A stretch of DNA of 64,000 nt, taken from assembly GCA_965204345.1 (NCBI GenBank), contig OZ241981.1:1248001-1312000 (forward strand), given 5' to 3'. Both the position numbers and the translations under genes were made by a program. The stretch's first letter is position 1, and each line of letters opens with the position of its first letter. This document shows, one piece after another, positions 18,712 to 43,414 of the stretch. The DNA comes from Nitrosopumilus sp. Lineage in GTDB: Archaea > Thermoproteota > Nitrososphaeria > Nitrososphaerales > Nitrosopumilaceae. Under the pieces are notes generated by a model, which searched no databases, was not told the DNA's origin, and was given only the letters and a program-made list of their open reading frames with translations.

Positions 18712-19104
18712 CTATTCATCATTATCATTTGATTCATTAGATCCTACGTCTAGCAATTCTAATGACTTTAGATCAAATTGATAAATTGCTTTCATTTCAA
18801 TTTCTTTTTCTTTTTCAAGAAATTCTGACACTTTTTTGCTTAATGGTGCTTTATGTTGATCAAAAACAAATTCATAAACTTCACCCTTTAGCAGATCATC
18901 AATTTTGATGGTCTTTGGTACATCCATTGTTACAATGTGTCGTCCATCATCTACGGCATCATACAATTGTACATCAATTTTGTTGTCTTCATAATAAAAT
19001 TCTAGAATATACCCTGATTTTTTTAATTCCTCAGGTTTCTTAAATTTTGCATTTTGAATTTCATCAGTAACCCATTTTGGAATATCGTCTTTCTTTTTTA
19101 CCAT
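18712..19104 (-). CDS. hypothetical protein
   Basis: 130 aa ORF, 12 nt from the upstream gene. Confidence 0.75.
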   Translation of the reverse strand: MVKKKDDIPKWVTDEIQNAKFKKPEELKKSGYILEFYYEDNKIDVQLYDAVDDGRHIVTMDVPKTIKIDDLLKGEVYEFVFDQHKAPLSKKVSEFLEKEKEIEMKAIYQFDLKSLELLDVGSNESNDNDE

Positions 19105-19116
19105 GATAAATCGACT

Positions 19117-19431
19117 CTAACTTTCTGCTTTTTCTTTTTTACTCTTTGACCACCATTCTAGATAGTCATCATGTTTATCATCACGTGTCCTTTCCTTCTG
19201 ATTTAATTTGAATCTAATATCTGAAACCTCTTCCCTTGTTGCATACAATCCGCATCGCTTACAGATAAAATGTCGCCTATTCTTTTCATCCATTTTCATT
19301 GGAATATCAATTTCATCAAATAACTTGAATAATGCGTCTCTGCTTCTATCCTCCTCTTCTGGGAAATCTTCTATGTATTTTGCTTCTATCTTCTTCTTCT
19401 CTCGTGATGTACATTCAGGACAGTTAGGCAC
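19117..19431 (-). CDS. hypothetical zinc-binding protein
   Basis: CPEC...CKRC; GTG start with upstream TTTTAT. Confidence 0.75.
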   Translation of the reverse strand: MPNCPECTSREKKKIEAKYIEDFPEEEDRSRDALFKLFDEIDIPMKMDEKNRRHFICKRCGLYATREEVSDIRFKLNQKERTRDDKHDDYLEWWSKSKKEKAES

Positions 19432-19491
19432 TGATGATTTGGCTTAATTTTTTCCATAAAAGCGTTCCCACATTCTTAATTGATCGATATT

Positions 19492-19559
19492 ATCTGACAC
19501 GCAGATTTTTTCATCATCCCTTTCGGTCCGTTCGCCCATCGAAATCCTACGTGCCAGAT
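19492..19559 (-). ncRNA. candidate K-turn (C/D-box-like) hairpin RNA
   Basis: minus strand AUCUGGCACGUAGG...UCUGCGUGUCAGAU 14-bp stem with G-U pairs; apex CGGA-CC-GAAA-GG-G-AUGAUGA. Confidence 0.6.
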
Positions 19560-19583
19560 GAACAAAATCATGTAAATAATGTA

Positions 19584-20819
19584 TTATCTCTTTTCCTCTA
19601 AGATCTGAGCAGCAATCCTGGCTGAATTTTCTGCCCCATTGGGAACAAAATTCTCTGAAAATTTATTCAAGCTATCTTGAAATTCATCATAATTTTCTTT
19701 AATTTTAGATATTCCCGCAGTTACCTGGTCTGTTTTTATGGCTAAAATTCCCAGTTTTTCTTCTTCTGCCCATTTGATATTATTAGTATGCTCATCATAA
19801 ACTGGAATCCCGATTATCGGCTTTGCTTTTCCACCCATTATTTCTCCCATTACCGTATGTGATCCATTAACTACTGCATACTTACATAAATTCAAAACTG
19901 TATCTTTTTCCTGTTCTGATAGAAATCCAACATCAATCTGTAACCAATCAATCTTTTTATCCAGTGCTTCAGATATTGAATATTTTTTTCCATCTTTTCC
20001 TAACACTGAATCTATATCTGGATTATTTCTTGCATGTGATATTATTCTTTTTTCATCTTTCATTTCATTCTGATGAAATACTTTTTCATATCTCTCACCA
20101 GTACCATCGTTTGTCGATTTATTTCCGGTTCTCATCCAATAACCAAATTCTTCATTCTTTACTAATTTTTCAAGATTTGAAGTTTTCTCCTTTTTAACTT
20201 GCTTATTGCCTGTAAAATGTCCTACATAGATAATCTTTTTTTCTACCTCTTTTGTAAAATTCAGGTTATATTCACACATTGTGTATGGCGGCGGCGAATC
20301 TGCAACAAGAATTTTTGAAGCTTTTTCAATCTGTTTTGCAATAAAAATTAGTGATGGATAAAGATATGCCCTTGAACTATACAATTTTGGTCTAAACTGA
20401 TTTGTTATAAACAGGCTTGGAATATTACGATTTTTTGCTAAAATATTTGATCCCATATCCCCATCATTAACCACCAGATCAAATTTTTCCTTGTCGTAAA
20501 GCTTTCTTTCTTCTCTTAAATAATCTACAACTTGTCTTACTAACGCAGGATTTTTTGAAACTGGTAATAACAAATTCATCAATGACAATGAAATACTAGG
20601 ACCGAATTTACCATCAATTGGCGTTGGCATTAAAATTTGATGGATTTTCTCTCTTTGATCAGGAAATTTCTTTAATAATTTTTCATAAACATGATCTTTG
20701 CTAGAAAAATGAACCTCAAATTTTTCTTTAAGATGATCCCCTAATACATCATTAAACCTCATCATTCGTGAATAATGACCGCTTCCCCAAGGGTAGATGA
20801 ATTCTCCTATTTTGAGCAC
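19584..20819 (-). CDS. GT-B glycosyltransferase (GT28/MurG-like)
   Basis: WGSGHYSR N-terminal motif; NGSHTVMGE..IGIP..EH C-terminal motif. Confidence 0.8.
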   Translation of the reverse strand: MLKIGEFIYPWGSGHYSRMMRFNDVLGDHLKEKFEVHFSSKDHVYEKLLKKFPDQREKIHQILMPTPIDGKFGPSISLSLMNLLLPVSKNPALVRQVVDYLREERKLYDKEKFDLVVNDGDMGSNILAKNRNIPSLFITNQFRPKLYSSRAYLYPSLIFIAKQIEKASKILVADSPPPYTMCEYNLNFTKEVEKKIIYVGHFTGNKQVKKEKTSNLEKLVKNEEFGYWMRTGNKSTNDGTGERYEKVFHQNEMKDEKRIISHARNNPDIDSVLGKDGKKYSISEALDKKIDWLQIDVGFLSEQEKDTVLNLCKYAVVNGSHTVMGEIMGGKAKPIIGIPVYDEHTNNIKWAEEEKLGILAIKTDQVTAGISKIKENYDEFQDSLNKFSENFVPNGAENSARIAAQILEEKR

Positions 20820-20850: not shown

Positions 20851-21984
20851 TCAATGATTTTCTAGCGAGTCCAAAATATCATGTAGGTTGTTTGGTCCCA
20901 CTTTGATTTTGATCTTTTTCTTTGTTTCAAGCCCATACTCTACATCTTTTTTTGAAAAAGAAGGAATTTCATTTGAGGTCATGGTGACCATCTTTTCTAA
21001 TTTTTTGATATTTCTTTCCAATCCAATCTCCTTTGCCTCTTCAAACAAATTAACATCAACACCAGTTAATGGAAGTATGGGAAATTTCTTTCTTTCAAAC
21101 ACCCGTTTTAATGAATTATCAACAAACTCTGGAGAAAAAACCAAGGGTGACAATGCCAATGATACCCGTCTGTTTGAATATTGTAGTAATATTTCTAATA
21201 TTGAATTTACATAAATTAAATAATTTTTAATTCCATTAGGATTAATTTTTAATTCCAGGAACTCAAAATCAATATTATCTTGCATCAATCTTGGTATTAT
21301 CTGATTAATTATTTTTGCAAGATTCATTAGTTCTGATTTTTGTCTAAAACAGACTATTATTTTTACGTCATAACCCTGCTTTATTGTCTCAAAGCAGGAA
21401 ACTGCTGAAATTTCATCATATACTGCACAAATGGTTTTTTCCTTTTGTGATCTATATGGAATTCCACCATTACCTTGATCTGAAAAAATACAGATATATG
21501 CATTATTTTTTGTCAAGTATGTGTAAAGCAGTTTATCAAAATCTTCATCTGTTCCTGGCCGTGCACCTAAATTTGATTTTTTTTCTATGATATCTGATGT
21601 AGCTGCAATTTCTGCATCTTTTGTTACAAATCCTTTTGATGTTCCTTCTACTTTAACCAAAAATTTTTCACCCCTTAATAGCAAATTACCTCCAATTGAT
21701 GTAATTTCAGAAACAATATCTTTGAAATTATTGTCTATCTGTCTTGCTATTGCTATTTTTTCAATACCGAAAAGCAAATTGATAGTAGATGATGCAAATA
21801 CTGGATCGTTTGCATCCACTAAAATTACATCACCATCGCGTTTAACAGACTTGAATTCCTGATTTTTCATTTTTAGAATTTTCTTGATGTTTGAAACCAA
21901 ATCTGGAATCTTATTTTTTGAAAATATTGTTGGAAAAACTACTACATATGATATTTCATTCATATTTTCTGTTTTAAAATTCAC
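20851..21984 (-). CDS. ThiI-like THUMP-domain protein with degenerate PP-loop
   Basis: FGIEK, THUMP-like segment, GNGGIP; no SGGxDS. Confidence 0.7.
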   Translation of the reverse strand: MNFKTENMNEISYVVVFPTIFSKNKIPDLVSNIKKILKMKNQEFKSVKRDGDVILVDANDPVFASSTINLLFGIEKIAIARQIDNNFKDIVSEITSIGGNLLLRGEKFLVKVEGTSKGFVTKDAEIAATSDIIEKKSNLGARPGTDEDFDKLLYTYLTKNNAYICIFSDQGNGGIPYRSQKEKTICAVYDEISAVSCFETIKQGYDVKIIVCFRQKSELMNLAKIINQIIPRLMQDNIDFEFLELKINPNGIKNYLIYVNSILEILLQYSNRRVSLALSPLVFSPEFVDNSLKRVFERKKFPILPLTGVDVNLFEEAKEIGLERNIKKLEKMVTMTSNEIPSFSKKDVEYGLETKKKIKIKVGPNNLHDILDSLENH

Positions 21985-43340: not shown

Positions 43341-43414
43341 TGCGGAGTACGGGATTTGAACCCGTGACCTTCAGCTTGGGAAGCTGACGTCATACCAGCC
43401 TAAACTAACTCCGC
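43341..43414 (-). tRNA. tRNA-Gly (CCC), intronless, CCA not encoded
   Basis: GCGGAGT/ACTCCGC acceptor stem, TCAGC-TTCCCAA-GCTGA anticodon arm, GGTTCAAATCC T-arm. Confidence 0.97.

Follow-up and report, generated by a model that had tools for sequence, protein, structure and literature searches.

What is the function of the 68-nt hairpin that can be drawn on the minus strand at positions 19492-19559 of a 64,000-nt stretch of Nitrosopumilus DNA (the whole of which is called the window here)? The main ammonia oxidisers of the sea and of soils belong to the Nitrososphaeria, and to our knowledge almost nothing is known about the small RNAs of this class. The first-pass annotation of the window had placed at this position a long hairpin capped by a kink-turn, between a glycosyltransferase gene and a Zn-protein gene. 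On re-reading, the minus-strand letters that it quoted were in exact agreement with the sequence, and the location was found to be as described, all three elements being on the minus strand. The hairpin starts 24 nt past the stop codon of the 411-aa ORF and ends 60 nt before the 104-aa ORF. The parts of the locus are as follows, in the direction of transcription.

19584-20819, minus strand: 411-aa glycosyltransferase-like ORF (weak matches), the upstream neighbour
19582..19587, minus strand: TATA-like ATAATA, a predicted promoter element that ends 22 nt upstream of the helix and overlaps the glycosyltransferase stop codon
19492..19559, minus strand: structured core of the small RNA, 68 nt (sequence, fold z, covariance-model match)
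19546..19559, minus strand: 5' strand of the 14-bp closing helix (covariation, RNAalifold)
19542..19544, minus strand: UUU, a tentative extension of the helix past an A·A mismatch, pairing with AAA at 19507-19509
19531..19541, minus strand: CGAUGGGCGAA, a putative 11-nt single-stranded antisense element, guide positions 11 to 1 counted from box D (conservation, pairing)
19527..19530, minus strand: box D-like CGGA, whose GA is the non-bulged strand of the kink-turn (GA invariant in 45/45)
19519..19526, minus strand: C-stem CC/GG capped by GAAA (paired in 100% of cells)
19511..19518, minus strand: box C-like GAUGAUGA (AUGA and the second GA invariant)
19506..19510, minus strand: A-rich linker from box C to the closing helix (alignment)
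19492..19505, minus strand: 3' strand of the closing helix (covariation, RNAalifold)
19455..19462, minus strand: TATA-like CTTTTATG, predicted for the 104-aa gene, ending 23 nt before its GTG start
19117..19431, minus strand: 104-aa CxxC...CxxC protein, a syntenic neighbour in three families of the order

The closing stem consists of 14 bp, of which three are G·U or U·G pairs that would become A·C on the other strand, just as the first-pass annotation had it. Its further claim, that the structure exists at the RNA level and is strand-specific, was borne out by folding. The minus-strand RNA folds at -23.5 kcal/mol (z = -3.98), and none of the 200 shuffled sequences folded as well, whereas the plus strand reached only -11 kcal/mol (z = -0.88), a value that 40/200 shuffles could match. 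A local peak of G+C (0.486 vs 0.26-0.39 in the flanks) is present at the hairpin. The mature ends of the RNA probably lie a few nt outside 19492-19559. When the whole window was scanned with Rfam at the gathering score, the only match was a tRNA and none was observed at the hairpin; at E <= 10, the interval 19300-19760 gave chance-level matches only, at other coordinates or on the opposite strand. The archaeal sR12 family (RF01147) had no match anywhere in the genome. The tRNA, a tRNA-Gly (CCC) at 43341-43414 on the minus strand, is the only Rfam or ARAGORN match in the window. We also observed AUCGAUCA at 19474-19485 (minus strand), a few nt 3' of the hairpin, which holds the 6-nt palindrome AUCGAU. 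Most of the genus and parts of the family conserve this motif at a distance of 3-5 nt past the helix, where it might signal the 3' end or serve the next gene as a regulator site.

Of the 24 other genomes that represent the same genus, 20 gave matches at E < 1e-15 when 40 relatives were searched by BLAST with 96 nt; the central part of the element was also found in two other genera. In the alignment of these relatives, the interior was near-invariant and the closing stem changed by compensation. The covariance model R1, which was built on this alignment, found a single sense-strand match in the window's genome (97.4 bits, E = 2e-20; 22.5 bits on the antisense strand). Across the order, it matched 85 of the 151 genomes sampled, with one match per genome in 82 of those. 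The second match, where there was one, was the antisense of the same locus (G051 and G147) or a same-scoring copy on another contig (G111). Among the families of the order (designated f), matches were present in 23/23 genomes of f1, 9/9 of f4, 22/23 of f15 and 8/10 of f12, and in 0/15 of f14. A second model, R2, was built from 45 diverse sequences and detected the RNA in 113 of 151 genomes of the class, a tally that takes in one genome flagged as unpublished (G273), on which no other result depends; other orders were included (16/17 and 8/10). The 38 genomes without a match in this class-wide search include two whole families (0/14 and 0/8).

At the level of the phylum, 1/131 genomes outside the window's own family was matched, marginally. 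This locus (L120), from another class of the phylum, has the guide, a CAGA, the capped CC/GG stem and GAUGAUGA, and its closing region is shorter and arranged differently from the rest of the family. The MAG that carries it (G408) is 79% complete. Either the family may extend beyond Nitrososphaeria or this MAG may be contaminated. An exact-pattern scan over the genomes of 185,579 species yielded at least 117 loci. All 80 titles among the matches listed belong to Nitrososphaerota (Thaumarchaeota), the genera being Nitrosopumilus, Nitrosopelagicus, Nitrosarchaeum, Nitrosotenuis, Nitrosocosmicus, Nitrososphaera and Cenarchaeum. A structural scan of the genome for the same architecture returned this locus alone, which speaks against a family of paralogues with other guides. 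As judged from genome sequences, this is an RNA gene that most ammonia-oxidising archaea keep as a single copy. A literature search, mostly among papers outside the subscription journals, found no description of this RNA in Thaumarchaeota.

Covariation had been proposed in the first-pass annotation as a check on the hairpin. In a 45-sequence alignment, which was fitted to the covariance model and thus carries a bias towards the structure, all 14 pairs of the closing stem had changed on both sides and 91.9% of the cells were paired. The covariation score of the helix was 0.493 as against 0.192 ± 0.011 in shuffled alignments (0/500 reached it), and a control with slid partners gave at most 0.105. 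RNAalifold, used on the same alignment, independently predicted 13 closing-stem pairs, and compensatory changes were present in 13/13. The three U-A pairs of the UUU/AAA extension were kept in 78.6-79.8% of the cells and showed few compensatory changes. On the 3' side, the linker between box C and the helix is 4-6 nt long across the family, A-rich yet variable, and therefore too short to hold a second guide. In one homologue of the same genus (L021, genome G002), a 9-nt insertion, UGAAAGGGG, is present in this linker and the score is still 80 bits, so the linker tolerates a change of length.

At the apex, the letters CGGA, the CC/GG stem, the GAAA loop, the GAU bulge and GAUGAUGA are all as claimed earlier, and their assignment to the K-turn consensus fits across the 45 aligned homologues. 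Loss of the tandem G·A pairs would have spoken against that assignment; G·A and A·G were kept in 45/45 homologues, as were the bulge positions L2 = A and L3 = U. The 4b-4n C-G pair beside the sheared pairs was kept in 43/45, and 3b·3n varies freely. Read along its length, GAUGAUGA provides the bulge G-A-U, the sheared G·A and A·G pairs, the variable 3b and the G that pairs with the C of box D. Both pairs of the C-stem showed compensatory changes, and its cap spans from 4 nt to ~30 nt, being a longer hairpin in some lineages. In all the homologues, box C is RAUGANGA and box D is CNGA. The second letter of box D varies (CUGA being the commonest of CUGA, CGGA, CCGA and CAGA), and outside the window's genus the box is mostly the canonical CUGA. 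Box C/D letters in this arrangement make the apex a box C/D kink-turn, in the internal (C'/D') D-loop-C order.

The same annotation had noted one kink-turn and a long terminal stem, unlike canonical C/D sRNAs. This description extends to the family, as a second kink-turn was absent from every homologue. We looked for a terminal C/D motif: none of the aligned homologues has a box C past the 5' helix strand or a CUGA ahead of the 3' one, and a plain covarying helix occupies its place. There is next to no doubt that the locus is a conserved small RNA gene, structured and bearing a kink-turn. The missing second kink-turn motif, together with the lack of an Rfam match, indicated that it is not an ordinary member of an archaeal C/D family.

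The genome has the C/D machinery, the fibrillarin and Nop5 genes lying side by side and an L7Ae gene being present too. Five candidate sRNAs having both C/D and C'/D' motifs were found in the genome and none in three shuffled genomes. Candidates with all of the boxes C, D', C' and D are located on contig C1 at 262834, 263026, 779570 and 1149752, all on the minus strand and outside the window, and two of the candidates are tandem copies with AGGGCG...GCCCTC terminal stems. Some of their guides pair with rRNA, over 11 bp at LSU 1999, over 10 bp at LSU 2332 and at -18.4 kcal/mol in the region of the SSU 530-loop. In several of the canonical candidates, the rRNA duplexes are of -15 to -19 kcal/mol.

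We next consider the loop between the helix and box D. Its single-stranded length is 11 nt when the UUU/AAA extension is formed (~79% paired, with little covariation) and 15 nt when it is not. In archaeal box C/D sRNAs, the motifs on either side of a guide are spaced by ~12 nt, and the antisense element takes up some 10-12 nt next to box D or D'. Among 56 unique homologues, positions 4-7, 9 and 10 are invariant (56/56), position 3 is G in 52, position 8 is U in 31 and C in 25, and position 11 is C in 47, U in 7 and A in 2. Positions 1 and 12 onward vary. The best partner of the loop in the SSU rRNA is CGCCCGUCG (nt 1341-1349; 9 bp, -18.1 kcal/mol), a site that we take to be C1400-G1408 by E. 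coli numbering. This numbering agrees with the positions quoted in the available parts of PMC5389701 and PMC4644070. Guide positions 3-11 pair with C1400-G1408, with one G·U in this genome, and the box D+5 nucleotide faces C1402, which is nt 1343 of this 16S rRNA. As the invariance spans positions 3-11 and the pairing does so too, the conserved block is exactly the paired block. The two U/C-variable positions, 8 and 11, are each opposite a target G, where both U and C pair. Position 2 is a conserved A, unpaired with C1399; four homologues with G at this position gain an extra pair with C1399, and four with A at position 3 lose one pair.

The value of -18.1 kcal/mol lies among those of the canonical candidates (-15 to -19), and therefore this duplex is as strong as those of ordinary guides from the same cell; at 9 bp, it is shorter than the 10-11 bp of two of them. 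When the guide was shuffled, an equally strong duplex somewhere in the rRNA was reached in 23/500 cases. Loose genome scans revealed that 9-bp matches complementary to the C1402 site are not rare beside NNGA, many chance sites being present in coding DNA, and so the rRNA match by itself is not the main argument. In two genomes checked that have U at guide position 11, the 16S rRNA keeps G1408, so that a G·U is formed, which is a compatible change and not a compensatory one. As the 16S target is invariant, covariation between guide and target cannot show. A strict pattern for a canonical ancestor, having box C, the same guide and CNGA in the same register, gave 0/401 genomes of the phylum.

Other targets fared less well. 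The LSU site CUCGCCUAUUAAA (-13.7 kcal/mol) is weaker than the SSU site and interrupted, the best of 40 tRNAs pairs at 11/13 positions in wobble-rich runs, with none being convincing, and the tRNA-Ala that neighbours the RNA in other lineages offers at most 6 contiguous pairs. Complements of the 12-13-mer of the loop were not found elsewhere in the genome at <= 1 mismatch, and one 10-mer complement, at C1:1379793, is taken as chance. From the conservation and pairing patterns, it is likely, at about two in three, that the loop is an antisense element for the decoding centre of 16S rRNA.

In humans, SNORD43 is the guide for Cm1703. According to the available text of PMC11542601 and PMC5199042, this residue is the equivalent of Cm1402, a product of RsmI in E. 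coli, and the corresponding residues are Cm1639 in yeast (guide snR70) and Cm1645 in Arabidopsis (guide AtU43). In the parts of PMC5389701 that are available, Cm1402 was detected by RiboMeth-seq in Nanoarchaeum equitans, with no guide found there, and sR11 of Ignicoccus hospitalis was proposed as a C1402 guide. The target predicted for the present RNA is the same as that of Ignicoccus sR11, as far as that available text goes. We favour the reading that the RNA is an atypical, single-kink-turn C/D-type guide for Cm1402 made from an independent, trans-acting gene, to which we assign a probability of roughly 0.55 on the strength of comparative sequence data. Whether it directs Cm1402 through fibrillarin is, on the same kind of data, a matter of about even odds.

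What makes this RNA like archaeal box C/D sRNAs is its kink-turn of box C and box D letters, the putative antisense element that abuts box D on the 5' side, and the +5 register. It differs from them in having one kink-turn and not two, in lacking a second guide while keeping the internal D-loop-C order, and in having a Watson-Crick helix of 14-19 bp in place of the terminal C/D motif. No Rfam C/D model, sR12 (RF01147) included, matches it, which sets it apart from the curated families. It shares with the eukaryotic guides snR70 and AtU43 the cytidine equivalent to C1402 as target (by the available text of the two papers cited above for these guides), and the antisense cores resemble each other because this target is universal. 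The two eukaryotic RNAs are, however, canonical terminal C/D snoRNAs, and the Rfam scan gave the present RNA no match to them.

The 5' stem-loop of U4 snRNA is a kink-turn with a 2-bp C-stem and a small loop, which is bound by 15.5K/Snu13, a protein of the L7Ae family, and then by Prp31, which has a Nop domain. A kink-turn whose 2-bp C-stem carries a small cap is common to both RNAs, whereas in U4 the loop has its bulged strand on the opposite side, there is no antisense element beside box D, and the RNA is eukaryotic and spliceosomal. The RNA also resembles the synthetic half-mer box C/D RNAs of the Pyrococcus RNP crystals, with one kink-turn and one guide. These assemble with L7Ae, Nop5 and fibrillarin and bind the target (Xue et al. 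2010 in PMC6239191, from the available portion of that review, as is the description of the half-mers). Half-mers are laboratory constructs, while the RNA described here is a natural gene kept across a class and closed by a long helix. The more specific proposal, that it is a natural 'half-mer' guide which methylates C1402 in ammonia-oxidising archaea and their relatives, in the form of a circularly permuted single-domain C/D RNA, is put forward tentatively, its chances being somewhat short of even.

The guide reading implies the following course of events. The RNA would descend from the box C/D guide class and would have retained one of its kink-turns. This kink-turn would be bound by L7Ae, and Nop5-fibrillarin would assemble on the L7Ae-RNA surface, with the second Nop5 of the dimer either having no kink-turn or holding a second copy of the RNA. 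During maturation of the small subunit, loop positions 3-11 would pair with C1400-G1408 of 16S rRNA, and fibrillarin, following the box D+5 rule, would methylate C1402 on its 2'-OH; this nucleotide lies in the decoding centre, at the P-site. For as long as the RNA stays bound, it would also prevent helix 44 from closing at its top.

Archaeal C/D RNPs have been described as requiring two kink-turn motifs, and an RNA with a single one might fail to recruit an active Nop5-fibrillarin dimer. The absence of the second motif, which makes a catalytically competent dimer less certain, lends some weight to another possibility, namely that the RNA is bound by L7Ae and acts antisense on 16S 1400-1408 with no methylation, as an assembly chaperone or checkpoint. 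Its task would be to keep the decoding centre and the top of helix 44 from closing before a late stage of 30S maturation, after which it would leave. The evidence for pairing between the loop and 16S rRNA serves this alternative equally, and a retarding role has been proposed for Neq sR13, a decoding-site sRNA of Nanoarchaeum, in the available part of PMC5389701. A pure chaperone, however, has no need of a +5 register that falls exactly on a cytidine which is ribose-methylated in all three domains, and the box C/D letters contacted by Nop5 (the 4b-4n C-G and the A after it) are kept. We consider a role confined to pairing unlikely.

A different account of the invariant loop is that it is a binding site for a protein. 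The RNA would then be an RNP scaffold for L7Ae and the 104-aa zinc-ribbon protein, or it would titrate L7Ae. By tblastn, the 104-aa gene was found directly downstream of the RNA in families f1 and f15 and within ~1 kb in f4, an association that this account would explain. The protein has no match in Pfam, NCBIfam or PDB; its Atlas clusters consist of hypothetical proteins, and among the mere 9-11 members for which a phylum is known, Nitrososphaerota is the commonest. The protein thus belongs to no known family and is apparently confined to the same phylum as the RNA, and the rRNA match taken alone is only modestly significant, both of which suit a protein-binding loop. But the association does not extend to the deeper lineages. 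In these (L121-L124, L129, L131, L132 and L084-L088) the synteny with the 104-aa gene is lost, and a tRNA-Ala follows the RNA at a distance of 5-70 nt on the same strand. The anticodon of this tRNA is CGC or UGC, and several of the tRNA genes hold introns that are misread by ARAGORN. The shift of synteny between the Zn-ribbon gene and tRNA-Ala is as expected of a trans-acting gene. Nor does a protein site account for the pattern within the loop, which varies only between U and C opposite G, whose conservation stops exactly where the complementarity stops, and which abuts box D in the manner of a guide. We regard protein binding as an improbable primary role for the loop. Under the guide reading, the close 3' position of tRNA-Ala on the same strand suggests a dicistronic precursor cut by RNase P in many deep lineages, and this cleavage could make the 3' end of the RNA.

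A TATA-like element (CTTTTAAT, TCTTTATAG, GATTTAAT, GATAAATAA and others) is present ~22-30 nt upstream of the RNA in most of the 46 lineages listed. This box holds its distance whatever the upstream gene is, from which it follows that the RNA has its own predicted promoter. The locus is, by these sequence features, a gene for a structured RNA of ~70-75 nt with a promoter-like box of its own. Similarly, CTTTTATG, 23 nt before the GTG, predicts a leaderless mRNA of the 104-aa gene that would be separate from the RNA, and the block GAACGCTTTTATGGAAAAA at the box of this downstream gene is invariant or nearly so across most of Nitrosopumilaceae.

These elements bear on whether the hairpin could instead act in cis, as a stabiliser or terminator at the 3' end of the glycosyltransferase mRNA, or as an L7Ae-responsive leader of the downstream gene or of tRNA-Ala. 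Its location would be suitable, as a stop codon lies 24 nt ahead of it and the next gene begins 60 nt past it, and L7Ae-binding kink-turns are known in archaeal mRNA leaders, as given in the available text of PMC5539422 and PMC6298567. Four RNA runs were examined through their Logan contigs, which cannot show a small RNA: two contigs cover the downstream gene only, and one contig from a relative (15 differences in 170 nt) spans 19345-19514, thereby joining the 3' half of the hairpin to the downstream gene. One of the four runs had no Logan contig on the locus, again with the provision that contigs cannot show a small RNA. Against an action in cis, the flanking genes change among lineages while the spacing between the RNA and its TATA-like box is maintained, a second TATA-like box belongs to the downstream gene and is positioned for a leaderless mRNA, and the 11-nt loop would be left without a role. 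We therefore think a cis-acting element very unlikely.

In archaeal H/ACA sRNAs, an ACA/ANA box comes just after the lower stem on its 3' side, two strands make up the pseudouridylation pocket, and 5-6 bp of upper stem precede the kink-turn; in this family the ACA is 14-16 nt from the pocket. A pseudouridylation guide of this type, built as a single hairpin with an apical L7Ae-type kink-turn, would agree with our RNA in hairpin size and in the apical kink-turn with its distal C-stem (PMC2094053, from its available portion), but it is rejected on anatomy as scarcely credible, because the conserved ACA/ANA box after the helix, the two-stranded pocket (the 3' loop strand being the 4-6-nt A-rich linker devoid of complementarity) and the upper stem (only one conserved Watson-Crick pair, the 4b-4n C-G, lies below the G·A pairs) are all absent, and because a lower helix of 14-19 bp would place any ACA >20 nt from the pocket.

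The gene would join the known housekeeping RNAs, having so far been missed by Rfam and by current annotation, and the covariance model from this analysis is usable for annotating the family. If the guide reading is true, the RNA would be the likely agent in these archaea of a decoding-site modification common to the three domains, which is made by RsmI in bacteria and with snR70/U43 in eukaryotes. It would also mean that one kink-turn is enough for archaeal Nop5-fibrillarin to act, whether in an asymmetric particle or in one that contains two RNAs, and a natural guide with one kink-turn bears on the number of L7Ae-Nop5 sites that a working particle needs. Such an RNA would then provide a natural test case for the debate on mono-RNP versus di-RNP, which is reviewed in PMC6239191 (in the part available), in a mesophile that also keeps two-motif sRNAs.

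Two further ORFs lie near the locus. In several families of the order, the 104-aa gene is paired with a 130-aa gene (18712-19104, minus strand) downstream of the RNA, and this pairing is conserved; Pfam, NCBIfam and PDB give no relative of the 130-aa protein. On the other side, beyond the glycosyltransferase-like gene, a 377-aa ORF (20851-21984, minus strand) has a weak, partial match (residues 27-237, E = 3e-10) to ThiI, the tRNA 4-thiouridine sulfurtransferase, which falls well short of the curated cut-off. By this similarity, the ORF may carry a THUMP-like RNA-binding part.
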